Part shown: positions 7,041 to 37,346 of the stretch, one piece after another
Position numbering within the stretch: position 1 is the first letter of the stretch
Layout of the letters: every line of letters begins with the position of its first letter
From: Promethearchaeota archaeon
Lineage (GTDB): Archaea; Asgardarchaeota; Lokiarchaeia; Sigyniarchaeales; SOKP01
Assembly: GCA_016839745.1 (NCBI GenBank)
Contig: JAEOTS010000081.1
Span: forward strand, 1-37,346
Length of the DNA stretch: 37,346 nucleotides
Direction: 5' to 3'
Notes under the pieces: generated by a model
Database searches by the model: none
Seen by the model: only the letters and a program-made list of their open reading frames with translations
What the model was told of the DNA's origin: nothing
Position numbers and translations under genes: made by a program

Positions 7041-8234
7041 ATGATATCAGCACCAAAGATCAATAGTAGTTTTGCAGGCCCTCGAGCGTTGTTTGATCAA
7101 TCTTATATCCCACCTCAAATTCTCTATAGAAAAAACGAAGAAAAGGCTCTTTTTTCAATTCTAAAAGACTCGTATATAGATGGATTTTGTTTAAATATAT
7201 TATATCAAGGGATTCAGGGAATCGGAAAGAAAGTTATAATAAATAAAGTTATTAGGGACTTGTCGCTTTTAAACCCTGAGCTCTTAAACATCCGTAAGGC
7301 TTACATAGATTGCAGGGATAAAAATTTAGAGGAAATAATTATTTCTCTACTTACTGAAATTGGGTTTCATCAGAATATTAATTTCAATTTTAAGAGTATT
7401 ATAAACTCTAATATATCTGATCTATGGAACATCTTTAAATTAACCTGTAAAAAAGCTGACCACAATCTTTTATTTGTTTTCAATAATATTGAGCATTTAA
7501 AACCAGAATTTATTAAGAAATTTCTTCAATATGGCAAAGAAACCAATATTAGCTTAGTATCTACTGGAAATCAAGTTTTAAAATCCTCTACTCTAGATGT
7601 TTTAAGCGAATTCGACATTAAAAAGAAGTTAAATTATTTCTCATATAACGAACTTCACGATATTATAAAACAGAGAATCTCATTAACTTTTAAACATGAA
7701 GTAGATAAAGAATTGATAGAATTTATAACAGATTTAATTTTTGAGCATCATGTTCCTGTACCCGGAAAAGGAATCGAAATTCTTAGAGATCTTTATCCAT
7801 TTTTAAGTAAACAAGTAGAATTGAACCACCTAGAGATCTTTGAAATACTTCAAAGCCAGTTTGAAACTTTACAAATTTCAGACGAATTTAGCATGCTATC
7901 ATACATTTCTGAAGCAGAACTTTTAACTATAATATATCTTGATAATTTATCCAATTATTTCTTAAAAAAATCCAACTTTTATATAACAATAAAGGAATTA
8001 AAAGAATTATATTATGTTTCATGTGAATCCATCAATTTTGAAAAAAGTGAAGAGGAGTTTAAACATCTAATTACAACTTTACGCAATTTAGGAATAATAA
8101 ACGCTTCAAGAAAAAATCTCATCAAGAATTTCAGATATTTCAACGAAAACATATTAAATTATAATTTCTACTTTATGGTGATTAATCCCCAAAATCTAAA
8201 GCACATTGTGGATGCGATTTTTAATAAGCATTAA
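7041..8234 (+). CDS. Divergent, probably ATPase-inactive Cdc6/Orc1-family protein
   Basis: N-terminal LFDQSYIPPQILYRKNE, YIDC and FSYNELHDIIKQR (YxxxELxxILxxR type) motifs; C-terminal wHTH. Walker A GIQGIGKK and Walker B LFVFNNIE are degenerate. Confidence 0.8.
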   Translation: MISAPKINSSFAGPRALFDQSYIPPQILYRKNEEKALFSILKDSYIDGFCLNILYQGIQGIGKKVIINKVIRDLSLLNPELLNIRKAYIDCRDKNLEEIIISLLTEIGFHQNINFNFKSIINSNISDLWNIFKLTCKKADHNLLFVFNNIEHLKPEFIKKFLQYGKETNISLVSTGNQVLKSSTLDVLSEFDIKKKLNYFSYNELHDIIKQRISLTFKHEVDKELIEFITDLIFEHHVPVPGKGIEILRDLYPFLSKQVELNHLEIFEILQSQFETLQISDEFSMLSYISEAELLTIIYLDNLSNYFLKKSNFYITIKELKELYYVSCESINFEKSEEEFKHLITTLRNLGIINASRKNLIKNFRYFNENILNYNFYFMVINPQNLKHIVDAIFNKH

Positions 8235-8398: not shown

Positions 8399-11300
8399 TT
8401 GACGCATATTAAAAAAATCTCAATGACCGGATTTAAATCATTTGGCGATCGTACAGTGACATTAAGGCTCTCTTCAGGGTTCACATGTATCGTCGGACCT
8501 AACGGGGCCGGTAAATCGAATATTATAGACGCTCTAACATTTGCTTTAGGTCGTTTAAGTAAAAAAACCATGAGAGCTAAAAGTCTTGAAGATCTGATTT
8601 TTGCTGGCTCTAGAGGTAAAAATCCTTCAAATAGAGCTTCAGTTACTTTGTATTTCGATAATTCTGAAAAAGTTTTCCCAGGTGGAACTGACACATTTGA
8701 AGTCACTAGAACAATTCAAAGAGGAGGGGGAGGGGGCTATAAAATGAATGGTAAGAAAGCCACCAGACAACAAATTCTTAACGCTCTTGCAACTGCAAAT
8801 GTAGATCCTGATGGTAGTAATCAATTCGTTCTTCAGGGAAAAATAGTAGAGATGACTCATATGAACCCTGAATCTCGTAGAGTATTCATTGAAGATCTTA
8901 TAGGACTTCAGAAATACGATGAGATGAAAGATGCAACAATGAAGGAGTTAGAGAAAGCGGAAAGAGATCTCGGTCAATTTGAAGCAATTTTCAAAGAAGT
9001 ATCATCTCAGTTAAAGAAAGTCGAAAAGGAGAAAAATGACGCTTTAGCTTGGAAGGAATTGGACGAACAGATCAAACTATATAATGCTCAACTAATAGCT
9101 TTAAAAATTGAAAAATTAAGAAAAGAAGAAAATGAACTAGAAGCAAAAATAGAAGAATCTAACACAGCAATTGAAGAATTACAAGAAAAAATAACGAGAC
9201 AAGATGAAATCTTAAAACAAGAATCGTTAGTAATGGAAAATATTCAAAAAACTATATCTGAAAAAGAGAAAGAGAGAGAATTAATCAATGAAAGCATCAC
9301 TCAGCTTAAAACACAGCAATCCTCAAATCAAACCTCTTTAAATCTAGCTAATAAATCAATTGAGAAGATAGCTCAAGAGATAAAAACTTTAGAAAATCTA
9401 CAAATGGTACTCGAAGAAAGTCAAACATATGATTCTTTAATTGAATCGGAATCAAAAATTGTAACGGAAACAGAGAATCGAATTGAGGGTGCAAAGGGTG
9501 AAATAGAAACTAGGCAACAAAAACAAGCCGAAATTGATGTTAATATTAAAAATAACAATGATACACAATCGGGTTTTAAAGGAGAAATTTCTACGGTTAA
9601 ACAGAATATTTCCTCGAACAAAGCTCAAATAAAAGTTTTGAAGGAAAATATAAAAAAAAATGAAGATAAGAAAAAGAAATTAGAAGTAGAACTTAGTAAA
9701 TTGAAAGGAGAATCTGAAAGCGTTGAAGAAGCAATAAAAAGTACAAACAAAGATGCTGAATTAATAAGAAAAGAAATAAGCGACTTAAATATAAAAATAT
9801 CCAAAGAAAATGATAATCAACAAGAATTAGAAAAACTGATAAACGGTTTAAGGGATGAAAAAACTCAATTAAATTCGAAAATAGCTGATTTCAAATCTAT
9901 GTTATCATCTTTAAATACCGAAATTACTATGAACACTAGTAGAATAGAGCGGCTAAATTCGAACAAATTAGCAACAGAGAATAAAATTAAAGAGTTAAGT
10001 AAAGGAAAGGATACAGAAGAAGTTTTAAAGGAATTATTAAAAGAGAGAGAATCCTTCCTTAATGAAGTTAACGATTATAAGGATAAAATAAAACAAGAGG
10101 ATTCTATTTATAGAAAAAATGAGCAGGATTTAGAACTATTACTAATGAAACAAGATTCGGTTGAATCAGAAATTTATGATAACAAGACAAAAATTGAAAA
10201 TATCAACACTAAGTTGAAATTATTAAAAAAGGAATTAACAAATCTTGAAAGAGAAAAACGTGATTTAGTACTAAAAACCTCCACATTAAATGATAATTTA
10301 ACTAAGACTGAGAGTGAATCTCAAAAACTCAATACGAAAAAAGATAACATACAACGACGGATGGGAGAATTAACAACTGAGAAAGATAATTTGTCAGTAA
10401 AAATTGAAAACACAGAAAAAGAGTATGAACGAAATACTGAAGATATTACGGGAATTTTGCAGATATTAAATATGTTGACTCAGAACATCAACATATCCGT
10501 TGAGTCAATAAAAAGCAATATTCAACAATCAAACGCAGAGGCAATTGAAACATCCGCAGTTAACTTCAAACAGTTTGTCTTGGATATAGTCGATATCATG
10601 AAAACTGTTGAAGATGTAAGCTCAGAAGCCGAAGAGGAAGAAAAGTCTGAAACCTCTGAAATGTCTGAAACCCTCAAATCAATTCTTCAAACATTAACCC
10701 TCTTTACTGAGAATGTCGATACAACAATAGATCAGTTAATAGATAATGTAAAAGAATCTGCAGATGTAGAGATACAGCAGTCTACCTCTACATTTGATAG
10801 TTTCGTCCAAGATTTAATGGAAATTTTAGAAAATGTATATCTTTCCTTAAGAAAACTGACTATGTCAAAATCCCAGGAATTATATAAACAACTTGAAGAA
10901 ATCACAGAAAATATCAATTCCCAAAATAACGACTTAAATATCATTGATCGAGATTTAACACGGATAACTACTCAAAATAAACACGATTCAGAAGATTTAG
11001 CAACGAACACCAGAAAGTTAGAAGAAGTCAATAAAAGAATTAGTGAGATAAACGAAAAAGTTGAAAAATCTGAAAGCGAGATCAACCAAAGAAACGCTGT
11101 AATAGGTGAAAAGCAAAAAGAAAATTTCGAGGAAGAAATAAAAAATTTAAAACAAATTAAAGAAGATTATTGGGATAAAATCTCTAATATTAAAAACGAT
11201 ATGGAGATTAAACAAAAGGGATTAGACGAATTACAAACTAAAATGCAAGAACTTCAAGGAATTCAGACCTTCTATGAATCCATCCTTGATATTGAAAAAA

Positions 11301-12862
11301 ATGTACAGGAATTAAATACTGCTATTGACGAAAAGAAAACTGTTATAACCAATACTGAGGACAACATTAAAAACCTCAAACTTGAACAGGATGCTATAAA
11401 TAAGAACATTAAGACTAAAATTGTTGAAAAAGATAACTTTTGGGAAAATACTGAAAAACTTAGAGCGCAAATCGACGATCAAAATAAGAAATTAGAAACT
11501 ACTATGGATAAGTTAAGAGCTCTTGAGAATGTTATGATGGTAATCAATTCAATTGATGAACTTTCTAAAGAAAATGTTGAAGCAAGCAATAGTGTTAATC
11601 AATGCAATCAAAATATAGAAAGTCTAAACTCTCAGGTAGATGAACAGCAAAAAAAGGTCGATGAAGTACAGGTAGTAATAGATTCTTTGAGAGACGAAAA
11701 GAATAAGGAATTAGAGGCACAAAAGAAAGCACAGAAAGAGTTAAATAAACTGAACAAAGATCTTCAAAAATCTCAATCAAAACTTAACGAATTGAACAAG
11801 AACAAGGAAAGAGAGCAAAAAATCATATCACTTAATGAAGATGTAAAAACTACTGAAAAGCAAATAGAATCCATTTTAAAAGATATAGAAAAAATTGAAG
11901 TTGAACTGAAACAGGAAGACGCTAAAAAGAACATTAAGCAGGAAGAAATAAATAAGGAAATACAAGGTAAAGATTTATCGTGGAAGAAGCAGAAGAACTA
12001 TCAAAAGCAAATAAACGATTTAAAAGCCGATCACTCAATGGAAAATTCCAAGTTAAATAATTATGAATCTAAAAAAATTATAACAACAGATCAAATAGAA
12101 ACCTTGTATCAACGCTCTAAAGATTATGGTGCTTTACCTCCATTTACTGACGATTTATCTGAATCAGGACTTCAATCAGACATCTCTACAGCTGATAACA
12201 AGAAAAAAACTCTGGAACCTGTTAATTTAAAAGCTATCAAACAATTTGATACCGTAAAAGAACGTTTTGATGAAATTGATATGAGGAGACAAACTATACA
12301 AAGGGAGAGAAAATCGATTCTCGACGCCATCGATAAAATCGAGCTAGAAAAAACTAGAACCTTTATGAAAGCGTATCACGAAATTAATCGAGAATTTGCA
12401 CGGATCTTCCAAAAACTATCTCCGGGAGGTTCAGCGAAGATGATTTTAGATCGCCCTGATAAACCCTTTGAGGGAGGTGTAAGCATAGAAGCTCGACCTC
12501 GAGGAAAAAAAATCAGTAGTCTTGAAATTCTCAGCGGAGGCGAAAAAACGCTCGTCGCCCTCTCGTTTATCTTTGCGGTGCAGGAGTTCTATCCTGCTCC
12601 TTTTTATATAATGGACGAGATCGATGCGGCCTTGGACTCGCCGAATGTTCACAGAGTCTCCATGGTCATAAAGGAATTTGCACGACAGGCACAATTCATG
12701 GTTATTAGCCACAGAGAGGAGAATATTGTAAACGCCGACCGGATTTATGGAGTTTCAATGCAACAAAGTGGAATCACTGACATTTTTAGCGTTGATTTAG
12801 AAGAAGAGGCGAAAAGGCTACTTGAATTACCAGATGTGCCTCCTAATATTGAAGAAAATTAA
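8399..12862 (+). CDS. smc: Chromosome segregation SMC ATPase (long, non-canonical hinge region)
   Basis: GFKSF, Walker A GPNGAGKSNIIDA, Q-loop FVLQG, signature LSGGEK, Walker B/D-loop YIMDEIDAALD, H-loop VISH, long coiled coils; TTG start. Confidence 0.96.
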   Translation: MTHIKKISMTGFKSFGDRTVTLRLSSGFTCIVGPNGAGKSNIIDALTFALGRLSKKTMRAKSLEDLIFAGSRGKNPSNRASVTLYFDNSEKVFPGGTDTFEVTRTIQRGGGGGYKMNGKKATRQQILNALATANVDPDGSNQFVLQGKIVEMTHMNPESRRVFIEDLIGLQKYDEMKDATMKELEKAERDLGQFEAIFKEVSSQLKKVEKEKNDALAWKELDEQIKLYNAQLIALKIEKLRKEENELEAKIEESNTAIEELQEKITRQDEILKQESLVMENIQKTISEKEKERELINESITQLKTQQSSNQTSLNLANKSIEKIAQEIKTLENLQMVLEESQTYDSLIESESKIVTETENRIEGAKGEIETRQQKQAEIDVNIKNNNDTQSGFKGEISTVKQNISSNKAQIKVLKENIKKNEDKKKKLEVELSKLKGESESVEEAIKSTNKDAELIRKEISDLNIKISKENDNQQELEKLINGLRDEKTQLNSKIADFKSMLSSLNTEITMNTSRIERLNSNKLATENKIKELSKGKDTEEVLKELLKERESFLNEVNDYKDKIKQEDSIYRKNEQDLELLLMKQDSVESEIYDNKTKIENINTKLKLLKKELTNLEREKRDLVLKTSTLNDNLTKTESESQKLNTKKDNIQRRMGELTTEKDNLSVKIENTEKEYERNTEDITGILQILNMLTQNINISVESIKSNIQQSNAEAIETSAVNFKQFVLDIVDIMKTVEDVSSEAEEEEKSETSEMSETLKSILQTLTLFTENVDTTIDQLIDNVKESADVEIQQSTSTFDSFVQDLMEILENVYLSLRKLTMSKSQELYKQLEEITENINSQNNDLNIIDRDLTRITTQNKHDSEDLATNTRKLEEVNKRISEINEKVEKSESEINQRNAVIGEKQKENFEEEIKNLKQIKEDYWDKISNIKNDMEIKQKGLDELQTKMQELQGIQTFYESILDIEKNVQELNTAIDEKKTVITNTEDNIKNLKLEQDAINKNIKTKIVEKDNFWENTEKLRAQIDDQNKKLETTMDKLRALENVMMVINSIDELSKENVEASNSVNQCNQNIESLNSQVDEQQKKVDEVQVVIDSLRDEKNKELEAQKKAQKELNKLNKDLQKSQSKLNELNKNKEREQKIISLNEDVKTTEKQIESILKDIEKIEVELKQEDAKKNIKQEEINKEIQGKDLSWKKQKNYQKQINDLKADHSMENSKLNNYESKKIITTDQIETLYQRSKDYGALPPFTDDLSESGLQSDISTADNKKKTLEPVNLKAIKQFDTVKERFDEIDMRRQTIQRERKSILDAIDKIELEKTRTFMKAYHEINREFARIFQKLSPGGSAKMILDRPDKPFEGGVSIEARPRGKKISSLEILSGGEKTLVALSFIFAVQEFYPAPFYIMDEIDAALDSPNVHRVSMVIKEFARQAQFMVISHREENIVNADRIYGVSMQQSGITDIFSVDLEEEAKRLLELPDVPPNIEEN
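10454..10837 (+). repeat. Protein-level tandem duplication (2 x 52 aa) at the SMC apex
   Basis: 10454-10609 ILQILNMLTQN...FKQFVLDIVDIMKTV aligns without gaps to 10682-10837 ILQTLTLFTEN...FDSFVQDLMEILENV; 16/52 identical by hand count. Confidence 0.85.
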
Positions 12863-12900
12863 AAGCTTAATTAAAAAATATAATCCTAAGGTGAAAAATA

Positions 12901-13908
12901 ATATCAGAAGACAACGGTGGGGAGAAAAAATATAACTTCAATGATTGGACTGTAAAACAGTTAAGAGATTTTGCTAGCAGGAATCATATTAAAATTCCCA
13001 CTAAATCTAAGAAGAACGAAATTATTAAGCTTATAGAACAAATTTCTTCACATCCTGAATTCGTTGATAGAACTCAAGAAGACGAGGTTGAAGAAGAGGA
13101 AATAGAAGAGGAATTAATTGCCGGTGAAGAAGAAGATCCAGCGTTACTCCACAAAGAAAAGATGGAGCTCAAATTCTGGCAAAAACCTCCCTATTCTAGT
13201 TTATTGGACCCAGAAGTGGCAAAAGAGTCCAATGTTGCATTCTATGACTTATCTTCATTAGTAGATAAATTCTTTAATAATATGCTTCACGAAGATTTAA
13301 TCAATTACAAAATCTCGGGCATAGCACTTAAGACATCTGCAATTTTGCATCACTACAAGATATCTAGTATAATTCGAGAGGAAGAACAAATACAAAAAAA
13401 AGAAGAGTTAGAACGTTTTAGGGAAAGGCATGGTAGATCAATACCCAAATCTTTAGCACAACCCATTCAACCTAAAATGTTGATTTCTACAAAGGATGAA
13501 TTATTTGAAGCTATGAGATCTGCTATAATCGAAACGATGCAAAACAAAGAGAAATTGAAACGCAGAAGAATGAGACGGGACGAATTAAAAGAACAAAAAC
13601 TTCAAATAAAATCCAAAGCCCAATTACCAAAAGAACTTTTAAAGCACATTAGTGGCAGGGAGCAAACCGTACAAGAATTACATGATTCTTGGTTTAACCG
13701 CATCAAATCTAAAATACAACTTGATGATAAAGAAACATCCTTTTTTGAAATAGCTGAGCTTATTAATACCGAAGAAGAAAGCGACCTTGGCAAGAAGTTC
13801 GCTTTTGTGCGTATGTTTTTAGCTTTAATGTTCCTCTCGACTGGTAGTAAGTTAGAACTTTATCAAGACGAGGATTTTAAGAATTTCTCAATAAATTTAA
13901 AGAAATAA
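12901..13908 (+). CDS. scpA: Kleisin ScpA with N-terminal SAP/HeH-like domain and acidic linker (335 aa; probable ATA start)
   Basis: ScpA N-domain (YDLSSLVDKF...NYKISGIALKTSAILHHYK) and C-terminal wHTH (FVRMFLALMFL...LELYQDEDF). Frame is open upstream of ATG 13162 to TGA 12892-12894; GGTGA at 12890-12894 lies 6 nt before ATA 12901. Confidence 0.85.
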   Translation: MSEDNGGEKKYNFNDWTVKQLRDFASRNHIKIPTKSKKNEIIKLIEQISSHPEFVDRTQEDEVEEEEIEEELIAGEEEDPALLHKEKMELKFWQKPPYSSLLDPEVAKESNVAFYDLSSLVDKFFNNMLHEDLINYKISGIALKTSAILHHYKISSIIREEEQIQKKEELERFRERHGRSIPKSLAQPIQPKMLISTKDELFEAMRSAIIETMQNKEKLKRRRMRRDELKEQKLQIKSKAQLPKELLKHISGREQTVQELHDSWFNRIKSKIQLDDKETSFFEIAELINTEEESDLGKKFAFVRMFLALMFLSTGSKLELYQDEDFKNFSINLKK

Positions 13909-13937
13909 ACTAGATCCCTAATTTTTGGTGATAGAAA

Positions 13938-14810
13938 CTGAACGAAAGAAATGAAAAAGAACAAGAAGATCAATTCGAATCCGAAACGGAAGAAGAAACA
14001 CCTTTAGACGAGACTAGTGATGAAGAAATTGTTCAAGAAGAAAGGATTATAGAAGATACTGAGATCGATATAGAAACCGAAGAGACAATAGAAGAATCTC
14101 TTAAAGAAGATTTTGAAGAAAAATATACCCAAGAAAATATTGAAGTAGAAATTGGTATTGAGAAGGAAGATTTATTGAGTCTCCAACCCTCAGTAGAAAG
14201 TTTAGAAGAACAAGATACCGAAGTTATAGGAGAATATACAACTGAATCCCACATGACTCAAGAACTCACGAAAGAAGATTTAGAATTACAATTAAAAGTT
14301 CTACGAAGGAATCTTATAGAAGGTGCTCTTTATGCTGCCGGTAGACCTCTGGATGTAGAGGAATTATCTACTAAATTAGAAATCCCAAAAAAAGAAGTAG
14401 AAGAACTTGTGAGAGTTGTTGCTTTTGACTATTTAGAGCGTGAGGGTGCATTGATTGTTGCTCAAATTGGAGAAAAATATCAAATGCAGCTAAGACCTGA
14501 ACTTACCGAGACAGTTTCCAAATTTGCTAAAGGAGGTGCCATTGCTGAGCGCTATTTAAGAACACTTACTGTAATTGCTTTAAAACAACCAATTTTAAAG
14601 TCAACAGTTATTAAAATACGAGGAACCGGTGCTTATGAGCATGTTAAATACCTCTTAGACAATGATTTGGTAACTGCTGTAAAAAAAGGAAGATCAGCTG
14701 AATTAACCACAACAGATAAGTACGCAGACATGTTCGGACTACCTAAAAATAAGGAAGAACTGAAAAGGATGATGATTTCACAATTAGATCTTGGAGAAAA
14801 TAACGATTAA
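13938..14810 (+). CDS. scpB: SMC-Scp complex subunit ScpB (kite) with long acidic N-terminal tail (290 aa; probable CTG start)
   Basis: IEGALYAAGRPL, LRTLTVIALKQPI, KIRG, YEHVKYL and TTDKYADMFGL are ScpB motifs. Frame is open back to TAG 13932-13934; GGTGA at 13927-13931 lies 6 nt before CTG 13938. Confidence 0.88.
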   Translation: MNERNEKEQEDQFESETEEETPLDETSDEEIVQEERIIEDTEIDIETEETIEESLKEDFEEKYTQENIEVEIGIEKEDLLSLQPSVESLEEQDTEVIGEYTTESHMTQELTKEDLELQLKVLRRNLIEGALYAAGRPLDVEELSTKLEIPKKEVEELVRVVAFDYLEREGALIVAQIGEKYQMQLRPELTETVSKFAKGGAIAERYLRTLTVIALKQPILKSTVIKIRGTGAYEHVKYLLDNDLVTAVKKGRSAELTTTDKYADMFGLPKNKEELKRMMISQLDLGENND

Positions 14811-25969: not shown

Positions 25970-28900
25970 ATGTCCTCTGATGAAGAAGATCGAATTAAAC
26001 AAGGAACAATAGCTCAGTTTATGAGAAAGCGCACGCAATTAGTGGGTTTTGAGTTTGGGTATTGGAAACACCAGCAATATGCTTCGGAATTCCTAGATAA
26101 TGCGTTAGACGCAATAGAAGAATTCCAATGGAAAGAATTAAGTGAGGGTGATTCAAGAATTCAATTTTCTCTTGATCAAGAATTGTCTTTAGAGAATTTA
26201 TCCATCCTTCAGGAAGCAAGAAAAGATGAAGTTGATCAACCTCTAAATAATGAAGCAAAAATAGCATTAATGCAAGAAATTGGTTTAGCACCCACCGAAC
26301 CTTCTGAACCTGAGTTAGTTATTTATAAAGATAAGGAGGAAGAATCTGGAGAAATTATTGATAAAGAGGAGATTGAGGTTGAGGAAGAAGTAAAACGAAT
26401 TATTGAAGATATGAACGAAATTCTTAAGCCAGTTGAACCCATTGTTGATATTGAACCCCTTGTTATAATTCGGTTAAGAGAATCTGAAGCTGCATCCTTT
26501 TTAACATCAGAGTTATCACAAAAGAATATTATGAGTTACACTTTTGAAATGTTTGATAATGGTGTAGGTATGCACAAAGGAGATTTACGTAAGTTTGGAA
26601 AATATCTAGCTTCTTCAAAAAGCCTTGAATTGAAACAAACTCGCGGAAGTCAAGGATTTGGGGCTCCAAGTGCATTCAGTGATGCTCAAAATACAACCGG
26701 GAAACCTATTGTTGCAGTGTCAAAGTCTAAAGATTCTATCTATGCTACGGTTTCAGAATTTTTTACAACTTCAAAGAACGAAAAGAAATATTTAATTCGC
26801 CCAACTGAAGTAGATAGTCAATTCCTCCACGGGACTTATATCAAATTAAATTATTTAAATGTAAAATATGTTAGGGGTTATGTTGACACATATATTAAAG
26901 AAACTGCACTATTAAATCCCCATGTAACTTTAATATTTATTGATCCTTCTGGAAAAGAATGGATTTATAGAAGATTAGTATCAAGTTTTCCTAAACAACC
27001 AAAATATGCAAAACCACATCCATCATCAACTAATATAGGGGATTTGCAAGATCTCCTTACAAAATCAGAAAATTTAACGATTTCAGCTTTTTTACAAGAT
27101 AATTTTGTCCGAATGAGTTCAAAAACTGCTAAGGAAATTTTAACTATAGCTGAAAGAAATTTACAAGATAAATTATCCATTTTGATACTAAAAAATGGAT
27201 TTGTAAACAAATTACTGAAAAAAACTGATGTCATTAATTTCTTTAAATTCGAAAAAAGAGTTTTTGGTCGTTCGACAAAACCAAGAGATAAATTGATAAT
27301 TTACAATGTTGATTCTGAAGAGTTGAAGAATAGCTATTGGGAGGTTATGGAAAAATATAACCAATATGATAAAAGTTTAGAAAGATTGACTAAAGAAATC
27401 AAAAAACATCAAACGCGTATAGAGAAGTCTGAAACTAAAAAAGACGAAAAAAAGATTGAGAAAGACATAGAGAAAGTAATAAAAGAGATAGATAGCATTA
27501 TTAAAGAAAGAGAAAAAATCAAAAATGACTTAGATAAGACTTTTAGTGTTAATCAAGGATTAGTCGAAGCTAAAAAATTAAAAAATAGAACCGAACTCGA
27601 AGATTGGGTTAATGAGGTTCAAATTTCAAAAGTAAAACCTTCTGCATTAACAAATGAACAATTTAATGCACTTTTTCACGCTTTTAAATCTATTAAATAC
27701 ATGAATCCTCCGACGGATACGGCAATCCCGGTAGGAGATATCGTTTTAGAAAGCACTTTAATCAAGGAGATTGGACTAAAAATATCAGATAATGTTGATT
27801 ATTTCGATGATCCTACAGAAAATCTTAAGACCTCGCTTGAAATCTTGCATGATAAGATAAAAAAGGATAAAGAAAAACATAAATTATCGTTGGAGAGTGA
27901 AACCATTGAAGATGATGCTGTTGGAATCGAAGATATTAGAGTTTTTAACTCAAAAATATTAACCAGTGTTGATATTAAAGATCAATTCATAGAATCAGAT
28001 CAATTTCAACAGACTATTCAAAAAAAAATAACTTCGTCGACTGAAGTACTAATAGACTCATATCAAGAAGTATTTGAGTTTTTCACGGAAAATTATACGA
28101 AAGATGATGATTTCGTCAGCGCAGAAACAAGACCCCCAACTTCAGGCAAAGGTTTAGCTTACGTTGTTGAAGCTTCAATGGCTTATTGCAACGATCCAAA
28201 AAAACTTGATACTCCTAAGCGTTCTAGAGATGTGCTTTCACGTTTTGTGAACAGAACCCCTAAATTAAGAGATAGTGCCGATTGCGCAATAACAAAAGCT
28301 GTTCAATCAGTAAATTGGAAAAATTATAAACTAGATACTTACGATAACAATCTTCCAAAGGGTCCAATCAAACTTATAGTAAATGTTTCCGGTCCTTATG
28401 TTCATTTGATGTTTAAATCGCAATCGAAGAATGCATTAGCTGAAGACGAGGATTTACTCAAAGAAATAAAATTTTGTCTTGAGGCAATAGGAAGAAGATT
28501 ACGAGTATATCTTAACAGAAAAGCAAATATTCGAAAAAGCGAGAAGAGATCGGGTTTAATTGAAAAATATATTCCAATATTCGTTCAGAGTGCTTACAAT
28601 ATCGTTTCGCAGGGTGATGGAAAATACAAAGGTAAAATTTCAGAAAAAGAATTAGAAAAGTTAATGAAAGACGCAATTGGAGTAAAAGTACCTATTAAAA
28701 TTACAGAAAGCAAACCAAAACCAATTGTAAAAGAAGAAGCTGATAAAGATATATATAAAAAAGTTGAAGTCAAATGGGAAGAAACGAGTGAAAAAGAAGA
28801 AATTCTTCCTGAGATAGTGGAACTTGACCAAAATTTTTTAACTGAAAAAACTCTTCGGAATTGGACAATTAACGAATTAAGAGAATATTGCACAGAAAAC

Positions 28901-29365
28901 GAGATAGAAGTATCATCTTATGTTCGAAAAGATGATATTATAAATAGTATTCAAGATTTTTATAAAAAAGGAAAACCTGAAAAAGTTGCCCCATTAGTTA
29001 AGGAAGTAAAGAAACCAATAAAGATTGAACCTGTTAAACCCGGTACAATTGCTGAAAAAAGAAAACAATTGCAAATCGCTAAGGGTGAAGCGATAACCCA
29101 ACCTATTAAGAAAAAAGAACCACCGGTACGAACTCAACCACTTCAACCCCAGTTAACTCAAACTCAATTGCCAATCATTACATCAGATAAAATAACAGAA
29201 GCATTATCTGATGAATGGCAACCAATAACATCTCTAATTTTTAAAATGAAAATAAAAGACATGATGGATGCTCGGTTCTTACAAATCAAACTAAAAGAGT
29301 TAGAGCGAAAAGGTTTAGTGTTAGCTGAATCAAAAATGGGTAAAAAGCATTGGAAGTTAAAATAA
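25970..29365 (+). CDS. top6B: DNA topoisomerase VI subunit B, enlarged (1131 aa)
   Basis: GHKL boxes EFLDNALDA, DNGVGM, TRGSQGFG, HGT; NPHV and KPHP motifs; transducer RFVNRTP, WKNYKL, FKSQSKNAL; directly upstream of top6A. Confidence 0.92.
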   Translation: MSSDEEDRIKQGTIAQFMRKRTQLVGFEFGYWKHQQYASEFLDNALDAIEEFQWKELSEGDSRIQFSLDQELSLENLSILQEARKDEVDQPLNNEAKIALMQEIGLAPTEPSEPELVIYKDKEEESGEIIDKEEIEVEEEVKRIIEDMNEILKPVEPIVDIEPLVIIRLRESEAASFLTSELSQKNIMSYTFEMFDNGVGMHKGDLRKFGKYLASSKSLELKQTRGSQGFGAPSAFSDAQNTTGKPIVAVSKSKDSIYATVSEFFTTSKNEKKYLIRPTEVDSQFLHGTYIKLNYLNVKYVRGYVDTYIKETALLNPHVTLIFIDPSGKEWIYRRLVSSFPKQPKYAKPHPSSTNIGDLQDLLTKSENLTISAFLQDNFVRMSSKTAKEILTIAERNLQDKLSILILKNGFVNKLLKKTDVINFFKFEKRVFGRSTKPRDKLIIYNVDSEELKNSYWEVMEKYNQYDKSLERLTKEIKKHQTRIEKSETKKDEKKIEKDIEKVIKEIDSIIKEREKIKNDLDKTFSVNQGLVEAKKLKNRTELEDWVNEVQISKVKPSALTNEQFNALFHAFKSIKYMNPPTDTAIPVGDIVLESTLIKEIGLKISDNVDYFDDPTENLKTSLEILHDKIKKDKEKHKLSLESETIEDDAVGIEDIRVFNSKILTSVDIKDQFIESDQFQQTIQKKITSSTEVLIDSYQEVFEFFTENYTKDDDFVSAETRPPTSGKGLAYVVEASMAYCNDPKKLDTPKRSRDVLSRFVNRTPKLRDSADCAITKAVQSVNWKNYKLDTYDNNLPKGPIKLIVNVSGPYVHLMFKSQSKNALAEDEDLLKEIKFCLEAIGRRLRVYLNRKANIRKSEKRSGLIEKYIPIFVQSAYNIVSQGDGKYKGKISEKELEKLMKDAIGVKVPIKITESKPKPIVKEEADKDIYKKVEVKWEETSEKEEILPEIVELDQNFLTEKTLRNWTINELREYCTENEIEVSSYVRKDDIINSIQDFYKKGKPEKVAPLVKEVKKPIKIEPVKPGTIAEKRKQLQIAKGEAITQPIKKKEPPVRTQPLQPQLTQTQLPIITSDKITEALSDEWQPITSLIFKMKIKDMMDARFLQIKLKELERKGLVLAESKMGKKHWKLK

Positions 29366-29366
29366 A

Positions 29367-30569
29367 GTGATTAAAATGGCAAGTAAAGTGGAAAGTAAAA
29401 AATGGGATATAAAAGAAGCAAAAAAACTTTTTCAAGAATATTTGAAGAAGGGTTTAGAAGAAGAAAAAAAGGAAATCAATCTACCTGAAGGTACTGTTAA
29501 AATTGATGATCTTAATAGAAAACAAACTTTGGAACGAATTTACATATTAACAGACTCAATTATTGAAAAAATTTATGCTACGGGAAGACCCACTATTAAA
29601 TTACCTTCGAGAACCAGTGCAAATATAATTTGGGATGAAGAAAATGATTTGCTACTTTTAGGCAAACAAATTATGGAAAAACAATTTCACTCTCTTGCAA
29701 GCGTTGCTGATATTACAAGATTGATGAAAGTGCTCGAAAAGGTAAATGAATTACTACTTAAAGATATGCATGCTACAAAAAGAGAAATATTTTATTCTGC
29801 AGTTCAATTATTTGGGGATCAAAAAAATAGTGATAAGTGTATTGAAGATGTTGCAACGATGCTGTATACAACCAGAAATTCCACCCATATTGTTGCTTCA
29901 GCCAAAGGTTCGTGCATAGGGCGTCTTAGAATTAGAGATAGAAACGATATTATTGACTTAGAAGGCTTAGGGAGTGGTGGATGGACTATTAGCCCCATGC
30001 TTGATAATATTGAAATATTAGAATCAGATGCAGAATTTATATTGGTTTTAGAGAAAGACGCTGCTATGATAAGGTTAGCAGAAGCCAGATTTTGGCGTAA
30101 ATATCCGTGTATTATATTAACAGCAAAAGGGGCTGCTGATATCGCTACAAGAATGTTTCTAAGGAGAATCAATAAGGAACTCAAATTACCGGTGTTTACT
30201 CTTGTCGATTCGGACCCTTACGGGCATTATATTCATTCTGTTTACTTGCGAGGATCTAAACGGTTAAGCTACGAATCACCATTCTTAGCAACACCTAATA
30301 TTAAACTTTTAGGTGTATTAACCAGAGATTTAGAAAAATATAAAATCCCTAATGACTGTAGAATCCCAATGAATCAAACTGATATTAAAAGGACTAAAGA
30401 GTTGTTAAACGAAGGTTTTGTAAAAAAAAATAAAGCATGGGAGACTGATCTTAAATTAGCTTTAAAACTAAAAATAAAAGCTGAGATTCAAGCATTATCA
30501 ACTTTTGGATTTGAATTCTTGACAGATCAATACATACCTGAAAAATTATCAACAGGAGATTGGATATAA
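29367..30569 (+). CDS. top6A: DNA topoisomerase VI subunit A (start may be ATG 29376)
   Basis: TKREIFY (catalytic Tyr), TOPRIM VLEKDA and DSDPYG, C-terminal KAEIQAL. Confidence 0.96.
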   Translation: MIKMASKVESKKWDIKEAKKLFQEYLKKGLEEEKKEINLPEGTVKIDDLNRKQTLERIYILTDSIIEKIYATGRPTIKLPSRTSANIIWDEENDLLLLGKQIMEKQFHSLASVADITRLMKVLEKVNELLLKDMHATKREIFYSAVQLFGDQKNSDKCIEDVATMLYTTRNSTHIVASAKGSCIGRLRIRDRNDIIDLEGLGSGGWTISPMLDNIEILESDAEFILVLEKDAAMIRLAEARFWRKYPCIILTAKGAADIATRMFLRRINKELKLPVFTLVDSDPYGHYIHSVYLRGSKRLSYESPFLATPNIKLLGVLTRDLEKYKIPNDCRIPMNQTDIKRTKELLNEGFVKKNKAWETDLKLALKLKIKAEIQALSTFGFEFLTDQYIPEKLSTGDWI

Positions 30570-32498: not shown

Positions 32499-35400
32499 GT
32501 GAATAATTTGCTTATAGAACTTATTCTTTTTATAATTTTTATAGTTTTTTTCATAATTGGATTCATTATTATTTATAGGCAAGTCGCTTTAGTTAAAAAA
32601 GGGGAATTTGATAACAAAGATCGCCTTCAGTGTTTAATTTATGGACTTATTTTTAGTGCTAGTGTAATGGTTGTTATTGCGATGGCGTTTATCTTTGCAG
32701 TGAAAACTCCCGAATTTTGGCAGGGAAGTTCATTGACACCTCCTGATGTGAATCCCCTTTCATTACTTCTCCCATTTGCTTTTTGTTTAGGATATATTTC
32801 CATTTACCCATTAATTGATTTCTTATTTATTGCTTTAAGCTCCGAATCAGACGAGGGCCTTACGCCCTTTCATAAATTTATCGGGAATAAAATTATAAAT
32901 ATATCTAAGAGTAGAATAATTTCTGTCAGCATGGCTTTTCTCTTATATTTTTTATTTATTGTCCCTCCTCTGTTATTATCTCTCACTGGTTTACCCTTTT
33001 TAATGATATGGATTTCATGGTTACTTGTGTATCCATTAATGATATTAACATTTTATGGATCGAAAGGTTATATAGCGGGGATTTCTAATGAGTTTTATCA
33101 CATTCCCGATATTAAAAGGTCCGTTTTCTTAAACTTTGAGGATAGTAAAAGAGGTATGAAACAATTCGCATCAAATCCTAAACCATACATAGTGTTAGGC
33201 TTAATGTTGTTTGTTTTTGTTTGGGCATGGATTTCCATGTTTCAGACAGTAATTTTCTTTTTTTCAGGATCATTAGCAATCTCTACTATGACTTCATACT
33301 TTGTGTTTGTTACACTCCTATTTGGAATAATTGGATATTTCACACGATTTTGGGGCAGGAAAATCAAATATAGAGGGATAGATATCTATTTTGCAGCTTA
33401 TTTAATGGCTGCAATTGGAATTAATGTCTTGGTCAACTTTTTAATAGTGAATATTGACAAACTTACGGAAACTTTTAATTTTTGGACGATTACCGTTAAT
33501 ATCTCTCCTAATTTTATAATGTTCGCTTGGGCAGCAGTAATTGAAGAAATATTTATGCTCACTTTTACTACATATTACTTCTTGTCAAAAAATAATGAAT
33601 TCACAAGAAACCTCAAATACTCTAAAATTACTGATTATGGTCAAACTTTTGATGCCATTCCACTGTTTAACTTAATAAAAAGTTCTGATCCTAAACTGAG
33701 AAAGCACGCAGAAAATACTCTTTTAATGATGTATGAAAGAATTCCATTAAAATCAGATATTTCTCTGAACGATTGGAAATTTAAAAATTCATTATTAGAT
33801 GGACTATGTGATTCAAATCCGAGTTCTAGGGATATATCATATAAAATATTAACAAAATTAGAAAAGGATGTACCAAATGTAGTATTACCATGGATAATTG
33901 AATCTTTAGAATCGCCTAACTATGATAAAAGTATTCCCATTGCTAAATCATTACTTGATGCTGACGATAACCTAATTAAAGAAATACCCGTTGGTGTTGT
34001 AAATAATCTAATTTTTGATTCTGAGTGGAGAATGAAATTAACAGGATTAAAAATAATAAAAAGACTTACTTATATAGAACGAGGAACAATTCAAAATCTA
34101 GATTTTTTAAGATTAATAAACGATCCAAATAGTACTGTTCAGGTAGAACTTCTTAATATTTTATCAGAATCTTCATTGGATATTCCTATTGAAGTATATT
34201 TAGATAAAATACATCACAGGAATAAGGATATTAGAGCGGCAGCAATTAAAAACATAAAGAATATTAATATTGAACAAATTGACTCGATTCTTATTAATAC
34301 AATAATTCCCTTGATGAGCGATGCTAATAGTTCGGTAAGAGCTTCTGTTTTTGAAGTTATTTCTAAGATAGGAAATTTTAAGAAATTATCTATTCCAATT
34401 TCTCCTATTTTTGATGGTCTTTTAGATTCAGATGAAAATGTAAGGAAATTTTCCGTATTAGCTCTTGAGAAGTACCATATTGAGGAGCCAAATTCAATTG
34501 ATATAGATAAAATTATTCATAGAATAGATTCTCAGAACTTTCAGTCTATAAATAGCGTTTGTCACCTCCTAAGTAAACTTTGGGATATTAATCCTGAGAA
34601 AATCTTGACTACTCTTTTGATTTTTATAAAATTCGATAATCTTGAATTAAAAGAAAGAATTTCCAATAGTATTGTTGAAAACTTCCAAAAAAATCCTTCC
34701 TTAATTCTTGATAATTTAATAAGAGTAAAGGGCGAATCAAAATATATTTCGAAAGGTATAATTTCAAAAACAATTATAAAATTAAGTAAAGAGTATCCTA
34801 ATGATGTTATTCCCAAGTTAATTGAAAGTTTAGGGTTAGGTAACAAGGATATCACATTAAATATAATTTCTTCCTTGGACGACTTAATAGAAGATTATAT
34901 TGATTTAATCAATTTAAATTCTATAATAGAGCTGTTTCGAGATGACAATGATAAGGAAGTCAAGAAAGGAGCATCGCAATTAATTTCAGAAATTTCAAAA
35001 ATTAACCCTCTATCATTAAAACCAGTCTTAGCGGAATTATTACGACTACTTCCAAACCAAGATTTATCAGTAAGAATAACTCTCACAAAATCTATGTTAG
35101 AAATATCTAAACGAATACCAGATATGATCTCAATTCCTCTCACTATTAATTTTCTTTCAGATTCTGATTCATTTATTAGAGAAACTGGCGTAAAAATCCT
35201 AGGTTATGTTGGTAATAAACTCCCATTCGTGGCTGTCGATGCCTTAATAAATAAGGGATTAGTTGACGAGGAATGGATAGTTCGAGACGCTACTGTCAAT
35301 AGTATGGGAAAACTTTTCCAATATGTTGAAAATCGAGAAGAAGTGATTGAAAAACTTGTTAACTTGCTTGATGACGATAAAAGCTGGGTTCGTCGATCGT

Positions 35401-35855
35401 CTATGAATCTTTTATCTTCAATTAAAGGAATATCGTCATCTCAGATCCCTTTTAAAAAAGTTTCAGAGAATCTGTTGAATAAGGATTCAAAGATCAGAGA
35501 AGGCGCAGTTAAATTATTAAAAATTTACAGTCTTGATAATATAGATAGGATTTTTAATAATATTCTTTCATTACTGGGCGATGAGAGTGAGGAGGTTAGA
35601 GACACCACTGTAGATGTAATGGTTATCATTATTCAAAAAATTGGTATTTCTAAAATGTTATCTAAACTATTGAGAAATTTAAGTGACGAATCCACAATAG
35701 AGACACAACAATCGATAGCTACGATATTGGGTCGTACAGTGAGATATGAAGATGAAAATATAAAAAAAAGAGTGCTCTCTTTACTCAAAATTAGATGTGA
35801 AATGTCGCAAGATCCTATAATATGCGAAGTTTTAACGAAATTAAAAGGGAGTTAA
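32499..35855 (+). CDS. Multi-pass membrane protein (~9 TM) with long C-terminal HEAT-repeat solenoid
   Basis: Hydrophobic segments across residues ~5-360; many LLxDxxxxVR-type repeats (LMSDANSSVR, LLDSDENVR, LVDEEWIVR, LLDDDKSWVR, LLGDESEEVR). Confidence 0.85.
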   Translation: MNNLLIELILFIIFIVFFIIGFIIIYRQVALVKKGEFDNKDRLQCLIYGLIFSASVMVVIAMAFIFAVKTPEFWQGSSLTPPDVNPLSLLLPFAFCLGYISIYPLIDFLFIALSSESDEGLTPFHKFIGNKIINISKSRIISVSMAFLLYFLFIVPPLLLSLTGLPFLMIWISWLLVYPLMILTFYGSKGYIAGISNEFYHIPDIKRSVFLNFEDSKRGMKQFASNPKPYIVLGLMLFVFVWAWISMFQTVIFFFSGSLAISTMTSYFVFVTLLFGIIGYFTRFWGRKIKYRGIDIYFAAYLMAAIGINVLVNFLIVNIDKLTETFNFWTITVNISPNFIMFAWAAVIEEIFMLTFTTYYFLSKNNEFTRNLKYSKITDYGQTFDAIPLFNLIKSSDPKLRKHAENTLLMMYERIPLKSDISLNDWKFKNSLLDGLCDSNPSSRDISYKILTKLEKDVPNVVLPWIIESLESPNYDKSIPIAKSLLDADDNLIKEIPVGVVNNLIFDSEWRMKLTGLKIIKRLTYIERGTIQNLDFLRLINDPNSTVQVELLNILSESSLDIPIEVYLDKIHHRNKDIRAAAIKNIKNINIEQIDSILINTIIPLMSDANSSVRASVFEVISKIGNFKKLSIPISPIFDGLLDSDENVRKFSVLALEKYHIEEPNSIDIDKIIHRIDSQNFQSINSVCHLLSKLWDINPEKILTTLLIFIKFDNLELKERISNSIVENFQKNPSLILDNLIRVKGESKYISKGIISKTIIKLSKEYPNDVIPKLIESLGLGNKDITLNIISSLDDLIEDYIDLINLNSIIELFRDDNDKEVKKGASQLISEISKINPLSLKPVLAELLRLLPNQDLSVRITLTKSMLEISKRIPDMISIPLTINFLSDSDSFIRETGVKILGYVGNKLPFVAVDALINKGLVDEEWIVRDATVNSMGKLFQYVENREEVIEKLVNLLDDDKSWVRRSSMNLLSSIKGISSSQIPFKKVSENLLNKDSKIREGAVKLLKIYSLDNIDRIFNNILSLLGDESEEVRDTTVDVMVIIIQKIGISKMLSKLLRNLSDESTIETQQSIATILGRTVRYEDENIKKRVLSLLKIRCEMSQDPIICEVLTKLKGS

Positions 35856-36034: not shown

Positions 36035-37346
36035 ATGACAACACCAATGTCCCGTCCTAGTGTACCTATTAATAAAGTCCAGCGTTTCGAAGATTTTTAC
36101 AGATTATTTGAAGAAAAACCTGGAGAATATAAGTATCAAGACCAAATTAACGATATTTTTTCTAAAGGCGGTAACACGTTAGTAATTTTTTATGAAGATT
36201 TACTAGCTTATGACCCTCAAATTGCCGAACTTCTTAGAAAAAATCCCTCTGCTTTAATAGAAGATGCTACTGACGCTTTTAAAAACATGTTGAAATTTCA
36301 AGCCGGGAAATTAATTGAACAAGATTACTTCCTAAGGATAAAAACTAAAGATGAAAAAAGTCCATTACTTATCGCATTAAGAGGATTAAGAGCAAAAAAT
36401 ATTGATAACCTCGTTTGGACTAAGGGAATTTTAGTTAGAAGCTCAGGCATACGCCCTAAATTAATGAAAGCAGAATTTGAGTGTATGAGTTGTGGTGCGC
36501 ATTTTGAAGTGCTGCAAATTACTTCCAAAATTAGATGGCCTAAATTTTGCTCCAATACAAGGTGTAAAGCTAAATCTCAATCAGATTTTCGCTTAATTTC
36601 TAGGAATTCAGAGTTTATTGACTGGCAAAGCGTTATGATCCAAGAAATTCCAGAAGATCTGCCGCCTGGTAGAATCCCAAGATCAGTCCAAGCAATTTTA
36701 ACTTACAATTTAGTTGATACTGTTAAACCAGGCGATAGAGTTAAGTTCATGGGAATATTCAAATCTGTATTAGCCCAATCGGCTAAAAACATTAATAGTA
36801 CATTATTCAAAACTTTTGTCGAAGTAAATTTTATTGATCCTGAAGATAAGAGCGATGACTTCATAGAATTATCCAAAGAAGATAAAAATGAGATTGAAAA
36901 ATTATCAAAAGAACCAATGATACAGAGAAAAATTGCTAGATCTATTTCTCCTGTAATTTACGGAAGAGAAGAACTTAAATTAGCAACAGCTTTAAGTCTT
37001 TTTGGAGGTACGAGAAAGAAACGACCCGGAGGTGGTTACAAGCGAGGTGATATTCATATTCTATTCGTTGGTGATCCCGGTACAGGTAAATCTGAAATTT
37101 TAAAAAGTGCCATTGAAGTTTCTCCTCGTGGATTATATACTTCTGGAAAGGGCTCTACAGCTGTTGGTTTAACTGCGGCAGTTATAAAAGATTCTGATAC
37201 TGGCCAGATGAACCTTGAGGCAGGGGCTATTGTGTTGGCAAATGGAGGTGTAGCAGCAATAGATGAATTTGATAAAATGGATACTGCAGATAGATCAGCT
37301 CTACACGAAGCGATGGAACAACAAACCGTAAGTATTGCTAAAGCAG
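36035..37346 (+). CDS. mcm: Replicative helicase MCM, 3'-truncated (absent from the ORF track)
   Basis: Hand translation from ATG 36035: MTTPMSRP..., Zn finger CMSC...CSNTRC, IQEIPEDLPPGRIPRS, Walker A GDPGTGKS, YTSGKGSTAVGLTAAV, IDEFDKM, LHEAMEQQTVSIAKA. Confidence 0.97.
   Translation, partial: MTTPMSRPSVPINKVQRFEDFYRLFEEKPGEYKYQDQINDIFSKGGNTLVIFYEDLLAYDPQIAELLRKNPSALIEDATDAFKNMLKFQAGKLIEQDYFLRIKTKDEKSPLLIALRGLRAKNIDNLVWTKGILVRSSGIRPKLMKAEFECMSCGAHFEVLQITSKIRWPKFCSNTRCKAKSQSDFRLISRNSEFIDWQSVMIQEIPEDLPPGRIPRSVQAILTYNLVDTVKPGDRVKFMGIFKSVLAQSAKNINSTLFKTFVEVNFIDPEDKSDDFIELSKEDKNEIEKLSKEPMIQRKIARSISPVIYGREELKLATALSLFGGTRKKRPGGGYKRGDIHILFVGDPGTGKSEILKSAIEVSPRGLYTSGKGSTAVGLTAAVIKDSDTGQMNLEAGAIVLANGGVAAIDEFDKMDTADRSALHEAMEQQTVSIAKA

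Follow-up and report, generated by a model that had tools for sequence, protein, structure and literature searches.

A putative ATA-initiated kleisin with a probable helix-extension-helix head in a Lokiarchaeial SMC operon

The recruitment of SMC complexes to DNA is poorly understood in archaea, in which we know of no bacterial ParB loader. A locus bearing on this subject was found in an Asgard archaeon, a member of the closest known relatives of eukaryotes. The window, i.e. the whole stretch of DNA analysed (37,346 nucleotides), is a low-GC contig (ca. 31%) of this organism, and its homologues are publicly named Lokiarchaeota or Promethearchaeota archaeon. Between the end of smc and a gene publicly called from ATG 13162, which encodes a 248-aa protein, lies an apparent gap in which the sequence-only reading had recognised 87 codons that remain open in the scpA frame, encoding a stretch resembling HeH domains followed by an acidic linker. 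This description proved exact in codon count, coordinates and translation. Whether these codons belong to the kleisin gene, at which codon its translation begins, and what the additional segment may contribute to the SMC complex are the questions raised by this locus.

Immediately behind an in-frame TGA (12892-12894), the kleisin frame opens at 12895 and continues to the stop at 13906-13908. No ATG, GTG or TTG occurs in this frame upstream of ATG 13162, and the interval 12901-13161 consists of exactly 87 open codons; counted from 12895, 89 codons are devoid of any canonical start. By our own arithmetic, with about 8% of random codons being stops at 31% GC, some 89 open codons would occur by chance with a probability of about 7e-4. 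In this genome, the distance separating an upstream stop from the first canonical start has a 99th percentile of 72 codons, a value exceeded by the kleisin leader. In the first 60 codons of the window sequence, the two alternative frames contain 3 and 10 stops, versus none in that of the kleisin.

The smc (8399-12862), kleisin (12901-13908) and scpB (ca. 13938-14810) genes are located on one strand, and no terminator-like site was detected in the region 12600-14300. The upstream gene of the operon, smc (8399-12862, plus strand), encodes a product of 1487 aa from its listed TTG start, ends with a TAA at 12860-12862, and matches Pfam SMC_N (1.2e-40) as well as NCBIfam SMC_prok_A/B. On the other side, scpB (13938-14810, plus strand) encodes the kite subunit, identified by Pfam SMC_ScpB (1.6e-33) and TIGR00281. 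Its listed start is TTG 14175, and translation may possibly begin at CTG 13938, which is found behind a GGTGA with a 7-nt spacer, 79 codons ahead of the first canonical start. Two archaeal SMC complexes have been described, one of which is related to condensin and cohesin (10.1101/2024.01.07.573240); since a ScpB-type kite adjoins the kleisin, the complex encoded in the window is the condensin/cohesin-related one. In this Lokiarchaeial smc-kleisin-scpB operon, the kleisin gene most likely spans 12901-13908 and encodes a protein of 335 aa, not 248.

The product of this gene is identified as a kleisin by the winged-helix fold matches of its predicted structure and by gene order. The kleisin core (13150-13905, plus strand; aa 84-335) comprises a helical N-part (ca. 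aa 98-176), a central part, and a C-terminal winged helix (ca. aa 257-335, corresponding to 13669-13905 in the window). Foldseek searches with the full model returned a list headed almost wholly by kleisins, including Brn1 (7q2y_C), the C-terminal winged-helix domain of ScpA (4i99), Scc1-C and Rad21-C. The modelled winged helix (pLDDT ca. 70) aligned to ScpA 4i99 with TMt values of 0.66-0.79 and an rmsd of 2.8-3.4, and further alignments were obtained with 5xg3, 5h66, Scc1-C (1w1w/6qpq), Brn1-C (6qj2) and Rad21-C. The helical N-part is modelled with helices at 114-130 and 136-176, and the full-length Foldseek alignment to Brn1 chains is at a TM of ca. 0.2. At the level of profiles, a single weak match (Scc1-C 6qpw_B, E 0.54) was obtained when the full-length protein was compared to the PDB, Pfam SMC_ScpA (PF02616) did not match the window protein at E ≤1, and NCBIfam gave no meaningful match on the kleisin. 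PF02616 was matched by 13 of 34 orthologues (best E 2.9e-4), and among more distant relatives P0126 and P0127 match PF02616 and P0132 matches Rad21_Rec8, all below the cut-off; relatives were named 'Rec8/ScpA/Scc1 (kleisin family)' by JGI. A gene position between smc and scpB and a C-terminal winged helix are features held in common with the ScpA, Scc1, Rad21, Brn1 and CAP-H group, and the N-part is modelled as helical; the window protein differs in being missed by SMC_ScpA and in having 87 additional residues composed of the HeH domain and an acidic linker.

A six-frame search of 40 relatives for the kleisin frame revealed that it is open, with no internal stop, in every same-genus locus reaching the N-terminus (17 loci at 72-90% identity and one more at 63%), two further loci that end at contig edges being outside this count. 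Consistent with the earlier claim of a coding extension, neither stops nor frameshifts interrupt it in relatives. When the first 60 codons were compared among 17 species, pairwise differences at codon positions 1, 2 and 3 amounted to 2072, 1062 and 4252, respectively, and in-frame stops number 0 in the kleisin frame versus 3-11 in the other two frames. These patterns point clearly to purifying selection acting on the extension. In 151 genomes sampled across the order, the HeH domain is kept in 11 of the 13 genera sampled of family f1, and almost every complete hit of this family has a match starting between residues 1 and 14 (genera g1, g12, g13, g15-g18 and g20). Both the HeH domain and its translation can be considered real with high confidence.

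The opposite reading, in which the extension is an untranslated open remnant left by the loss of an ATG and the functional protein is the 248-aa form, has in its favour the lack of a canonical start and a public annotation beginning at 13162. It is nonetheless highly improbable, as at least 10 congeneric species devoid of a canonical start before the domain keep this domain intact under purifying selection, and as the same genome needs near-cognate starts led by a Shine-Dalgarno (SD) sequence to produce Ras, methylase, phosphoesterase and further domains in intact form. The internal ATG itself (Met88, 13162-13164, plus strand) speaks against this reading: it is not conserved, the corresponding column in orthologues being occupied by M, L, T, I, V, K, R, Q, F or A, and no SD or GGTG is found ahead of it, observations that also led us to discard a conserved short isoform starting at Met88. 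A fusion of smc and the kleisin by frameshift or read-through was likewise considered and rejected, several congeners having a frame that opens back into the end of smc; this configuration is not conserved, since the window and seven other loci have a stop directly before the start region.

The most likely start of the kleisin, as judged from its sequence context and its relatives, is ATA 12901 (12901-12903, plus strand). A Shine-Dalgarno-like GGTGA is found at 12890-12894 (plus strand), the last three bases of which form the in-frame TGA; its GGTG ends at 12893, 7 nt before the ATA, which is itself located two codons after this stop. Ahead of first canonical starts in this genome, GGTG is most often found at a distance of 5, 7 or 8 nt. 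The GGTGA sequence would thus position, from 7 nt upstream, the near-cognate ATA for initiation. The GTG contained in GGTGA was rejected as a start, being out of frame and followed by a stop after ca. 14 codons. In near relatives, the ATA is replaced by a methionine codon: the cluster mates at ≥90% identity are 335 aa long with an ATG exactly at the position of the ATA, and in these two proteins (P0233 and P0239), as in P0002, the motif M-S-(E/K)-N begins at the equivalent codon. Among congeners, this codon is ATT in eight cases, ATC in two, ATG in one, GTT in four and GTA in one. The five loci with GTT or GTA have an ATA or ATC 1-2 codons upstream, with a poorer spacer, and because these loci must start there the exact start is not uniform among congeners.

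This mode of initiation was further evaluated at the genome scale by a SD test restricted to long frames in which 25 codons or more pass without a canonical start, and to codons close to the 5' edge of these frames; a first version, which took in every codon ahead of the first canonical start, was abandoned for this stricter one as it was confounded by neighbours of true ATG starts. Genome-wide, GGTG at a spacer of 5-8 nt preceded 27 of 370 near-cognate codons versus 19 of 1456 other codons (OR 6, p 7.6e-9), and no enrichment was observed before near-cognate codons at spacers of 0-3 or 12-15 nt. At least 27 SD-led cases were counted among ORFs of at least 150 codons, with ACG and CTG also being used. 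Domain boundaries provide a second line of evidence: in most of 10 test genes, 2-9 residues separate the near-cognate codon from the Pfam domain, which begins far ahead of canonical starts, as illustrated by genes encoding Ras, RagA-like, metallophosphoesterase, C5-methylase and receiver domains, the Ras-like GTPase having its first canonical start 114 codons in. The margin is smaller for the IGPD domain, found at residue 32 of 51, and for DeoC, at 22 of 26, and the aminotransferase is not decisive. Because of this genome-wide enrichment and these domain boundaries, the ATA start is not a one-gene oddity, and SD-led near-cognate initiation is, as far as sequence data indicate, a habit of this organism that concerns dozens of genes. 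Near-cognate starts directed by a SD are known in bacteria, such as the AUU of infC. The kleisin resembles these bacterial cases in having an AUH codon at a proper distance behind a Shine-Dalgarno sequence, and differs from infC in that near-cognate initiation would here be a genome-wide habit in an archaeon with eukaryote-type initiation factors. No report of near-cognate starts in Asgard archaea was found in the literature searched.

One consequence of these starts is visible in public databases. The sequence-only reading had anticipated that gene callers limited to ATG, GTG and TTG would miss the extension, and this is what was observed, not only for the 248-aa public protein derived from this contig but also for 46 of the 120 best-matching relatives in databases (ca. 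38%), whose called start falls within the HeH domain or beyond it. Public calls cut the domain off as, in this lineage, ATA, ATT, ATC, ACG or CTG serves as the start of many genes, and for the same reason surveys of Asgard proteins based on standard gene calls will undercount N-terminal domains. The sequence itself is not new: full-length relatives with an ATG start are already public with HeH-clan Pfam matches, and database relatives carry precomputed matches to PF10281, PF12949, PF02037 and PF07498.

The N-terminal extension very probably folds into a helix-extension-helix domain of the SAP/HeH/LEM/Rho-N clan, probably of the DNA-binding type. This HeH/SAP-like domain (12937-13071, plus strand; aa 13-57), delineated by its Pfam Ish1 match, its model and its conservation, is predicted to consist of a short turn, a helix (18-27), an extended loop (28-37) with a basic K-S-K-K, a second helix (38-49) and a cap with the motif H-P-E-F-V-D-R. 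In the orthologue alignment, positions F13, W16, V18, L21, F24, N28, I30, P33, K38, F54, D56 and R57 are invariant or near-invariant. Pfam Ish1 (PF10281) matches aa 13-45 with 29.5 bits, above its curated cut-off of 26.6 (E 1e-6), and Rho_N and SAP match the window kleisin weakly; with the 34 full-length orthologues, matches were obtained for Ish1 in 28, Rho_N in 20, HeH in 17 and SAP in 3. The relative P0122 scores above the Rho_N cut-off (25.1 vs 24.9). When aa 1-60 were modelled with AlphaFold2, two helices connected by a 10-residue extended loop were obtained, with a pLDDT of about 85 over aa 10-50, and the same helix-loop-helix elements are present in the full-length model.

Structural comparisons with VIA-align placed 9 chains at Z ≥5, a modest range in which common arrangements can score. 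SAP domains are represented by PIAS1 (Z 5.7), SLX4 (5.4), the SAP-like domain of CDNF (5.3), E1B-AP5 (5.0), Tho1 (4.5) and Ku70 (3.5), other clan members by Rho-N (Z 5.4) and the LEM domain of emerin (Z 4.4). The list, which is enriched for the clan, also contains the SAP-like domain of MANF and the SAP domains of Hcc-1, MKL1 and FAN1, together with unrelated small helical pieces, and its maximum (Z 6.6) is held by the C-terminal domain of phage T4 endonuclease VII. Foldseek searches of the PDB with the 60-aa model gave nothing below E 3, and the sequence profile of the N-terminus had no significant match among PDB chains, with I-MsoI, R2D2 and GM130 occurring as chance-level rows. The clan assignment consequently rests mainly on Pfam and on predicted topology. 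The helix-extension-helix fold that had been proposed from the sequence is supported by an Ish1 score above cut-off and a modelled helix-loop-helix, with modest fold matches within the clan; a profile match is present on the extension. Profile matches and two helices joined by an extended loop of ca. 10 residues link it to HeH, SAP, LEM and Rho-N domains (PF10281, PF12949, PF02037 and PF07498), to solved members of which it also gives modest fold matches; several clan members are matched about equally, so that the domain is assignable to the clan and not to one family. Differences from known clan members are its own conserved C-terminal cap, H-P-E-F-V-D-R, and its attachment to an SMC kleisin. 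The literature searched on Asgard and archaeal SMC complexes yielded no description of a HeH/SAP domain on an Asgard kleisin.

Downstream of this domain is an acidic linker (13072-13149, plus strand; aa 58-83) with a conserved hydrophobic motif, E-E-L-I-A-G ... D-P-A-L-L, in which L72, A74, D79, A81 and L82 are invariant in the alignment. The linker has a net charge of about -16 and is disordered in the model, with a pLDDT below 50. Most kleisins of the order's other families have a motif that compares with it, (K/E)-E-V-I-(S/T)-(V/I)-G (L025-L031), with variants in three further loci (L021-L023). The 12 kleisin orthologues identified in these sister families have no HeH domain; their heads are rich in K, S and T, with a net charge of +6 to +40, and are followed by an acidic linker (net -2 to -16), most with the related hydrophobic motif, and then by the kleisin core. 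By comparison, the HeH head of the window has a net charge of only about +4. What is conserved across the order is a charge layout made of a basic head and an acidic leash at the kleisin N-terminus, and not the fold. An exhaustive profile search recovered more distant archaeal kleisins with short N-termini only, ca. 20-40 residues preceding the core motif, in line with the earlier statement that a standard ScpA has no such domain. To our knowledge, bacterial ScpA proteins have no extension combining a folded HeH domain and an acidic linker.

The HeH module is not confined to the kleisin. A second copy (28841-28987, plus strand) is carried by a Topo VI-B of 1131 aa (ORF 25970-29365; Pfam Topo-VIb_trans), in its C-terminal part, with a profile match at E 6e-8 and 29% identity over 34 aa to the kleisin HeH (E 3e-7). 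Two further proteins carry it, one gelsolin-like and one of 425 aa, for which no DNA role is obvious. Of the four proteins of this genome that have the module, two are DNA machines, namely the kleisin and Topo VI-B.

Taken as a whole, the explanation that we regard as reasonably probable is that of a 335-aa kleisin started at ATA and equipped with a HeH DNA-binding head. The HeH domain would act as a flexible, sequence-unspecific DNA-binding head on a leash of ca. 30 residues at the N-terminus of the kleisin, a position that would place it beside the neck and heads of SMC. There, it might hold DNA or hand it to the complex during loading, or anchor the complex during loop extrusion, and would in this resemble the basic N-tail of eukaryotic Rad21. 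Sister families keep the layout, their basic head being a disordered tail rich in lysine. A conserved basic K-x-K-K occurs in the loop and at the start of helix 2, which we take to be where SAP domains contact DNA.

The reading as a DNA-binding head derives from the conserved layout of a basic head and an acidic leash, from the Topo VI-B copy and from the N-terminal tails of Rad21 and CAP-H. In fission-yeast cohesin, the N-tail of Rad21 crosslinks to DNA and is required for topological loading via the kleisin N-gate, which decreases when the tail is removed (PMC7507959); loading of condensin I is regulated by the N-tail of CAP-H (PMC9797191). Like the HeH domain of the window, both are appendages at the extreme N-terminus of the kleisin, ahead of the helices binding the SMC neck. 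The Rad21 N-tail that has been characterised is a short segment, residues 1-17 (PMC7507959), and neither tail has been reported as a folded domain (PMC7507959, PMC9797191), in contrast to the window, where a folded HeH is predicted with an acidic leash; we infer a likeness that is positional and functional only. On these grounds, the role of the HeH domain as a DNA tether, including DNA binding and a part in loading, appears slightly favoured.

Members of the HeH clan can instead bind proteins, as LEM does with BAF and the SAP domain of MANF with BiP, or RNA, as Rho-N does. The HeH domain could accordingly be envisaged as a protein- or RNA-binding adaptor recruiting the SMC complex to a chromatin, membrane or cytoskeletal partner. 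Besides LEM-BAF and the MANF/CDNF SAP-like domains that bind BiP, this is suggested by fold matches that include the PIAS1 SAP ('p53 binding domain'), CDNF/MANF-BiP, emerin LEM-BAF, SLX4-MUS81 and the RNA-binding Rho-N, by the presence of the module in a protein resembling gelsolin and in another of unknown function, and by the low net charge of the head. We consider such an adaptor unlikely, however, as the basic disordered tails of sister families fit unspecific nucleic-acid binding better, half of the four carriers are DNA machines, and the K-x-K-K of the loop and helix 2 start coincides with the presumed SAP-DNA contact site. Even less probable is an autoinhibitory tail, in which the basic head would fold onto the acidic linker or the SMC heads and restrain loading instead of acting as a positive tether. 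The CAP-H N-tail does restrain condensin I, the layout of basic head and acidic linker is conserved across the order, and the short hydrophobic linker motif is invariant in family f1 with a variant form in most sister-family loci. Yet the control exerted by CAP-H runs via cell-cycle phosphorylation, to which nothing points here, and a folded HeH is more than a charge patch; DNA binding could, moreover, coexist with autoinhibition. The DNA-binding head remains our preferred reading, and the HeH-kleisin is a real and conserved protein that is, for SMC loading, mechanistically suggestive.

In archaea, a conserved appendage of a DNA-binding type at the kleisin N-terminus would represent a concrete candidate for SMC loading, the Rad21 N-tail meeting DNA at the corresponding position of the kleisin during ring entry. 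The condensin/cohesin-type SMC complex of Asgard archaea is thought to be a forerunner of cohesin and condensin (10.1101/2024.01.07.573240). A broader proposal, which we regard as doubtful, is that an N-terminal DNA-binding head was ancestral in Lokiarchaeial condensin/cohesin-type SMC, being kept as a HeH domain in one family and as lysine-rich tails in its sisters. Were this true, DNA entry through the N-gate and its control by a guiding tail would predate eukaryotes, and the HeH domain shared by the kleisin and Topo VI-B would bring loop formation and decatenation together on the same DNA. The occurrence of a folded HeH in one family versus basic tails in others offers a natural experiment on what is required of such an appendage. 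Variations on both themes were encountered: one sister-family kleisin has a zinc-ribbon-like C-x2-C...H-x-C in its head, and certain relatives of 400-410 aa carry two copies of the domain.

The start codon proposed for the kleisin has counterparts throughout the genome holding the window (G000), in which starts at ATT, ATA, ATC, ACG and CTG led by a Shine-Dalgarno-like GGTG were found in genome-wide use. Among the long open reading frames tested in G000, 27 such near-cognate starts were identified, including sites at C157:16100, C191:3661 and C93:60589, and those of the genes at C20:11601-12530, C88:141-743 and C189:211-1314 (C-numbers denote contigs of G000). The products of these 27 genes included a HisA/HisF fusion, an IGP dehydratase, a metallophosphoesterase, a C5 DNA methylase and two small GTPases. 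When 10 such genes of G000 were checked, the Pfam domain began 2-9 residues past the near-cognate codon in most of them. CTG 13938 may likewise be an early start of scpB; it lies behind a GGTG with a spacer of 7 nt and precedes the first canonical scpB start by 79 codons. If used, it would endow the protein with a strongly acidic N-terminal tail (window 13938-14174).

The helix-extension-helix (HeH) module of the kleisin also occurs in Topo VI-B (window 25970-29365), where the same module occupies part of the C-terminal region (28841-28987). With 1131 aa, this protein is long, archaeal Top6B usually being far shorter; it is followed by Top6A (29367-30569). Two further HeH-module proteins were observed in G000: a 379-aa protein (C172:13255-14391) with two tandem copies at its end and an N-terminal part that, judged by eye, looks gelsolin-like, and a 425-aa protein (C161:27014-28288) with a single C-terminal copy.

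Within the acidic linker of the kleisin (window 13072-13149), which is elsewhere disordered, the motif E-L-I-A-G...D-P-A-L-L was invariant in all 34 aligned orthologues of the window's own family. Kleisins from sister families of the same order (loci L021-L032) have N-terminal tails rich in lysine, serine and threonine, whose length reaches about 130 residues and whose net charge reaches +40. In most of these kleisins, the tail is followed by an acidic linker in which the motif (K/E)-E-V-I-(S/T)-(V/I)-G is conserved, and one of them displays a zinc-ribbon-like motif.

Many chromosome-maintenance genes surround smc, kleisin and scpB in the window. The order is a weak Cdc6-like protein (7041-8234, immediately upstream of smc), smc, kleisin, scpB, then Top6B, Top6A, a HEAT-repeat protein and, at the 3' end, MCM (36035-37345). 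The 1118-aa HEAT-repeat protein (32499-35855), whose gene is flanked by those for Topo VI and MCM, scored 43 bits, above the cut-off, against the Pfam model Cnd1 for the region of condensin non-SMC subunit 1; because HEAT models cross-hit easily, its possible hawk-like nature is only a lead.
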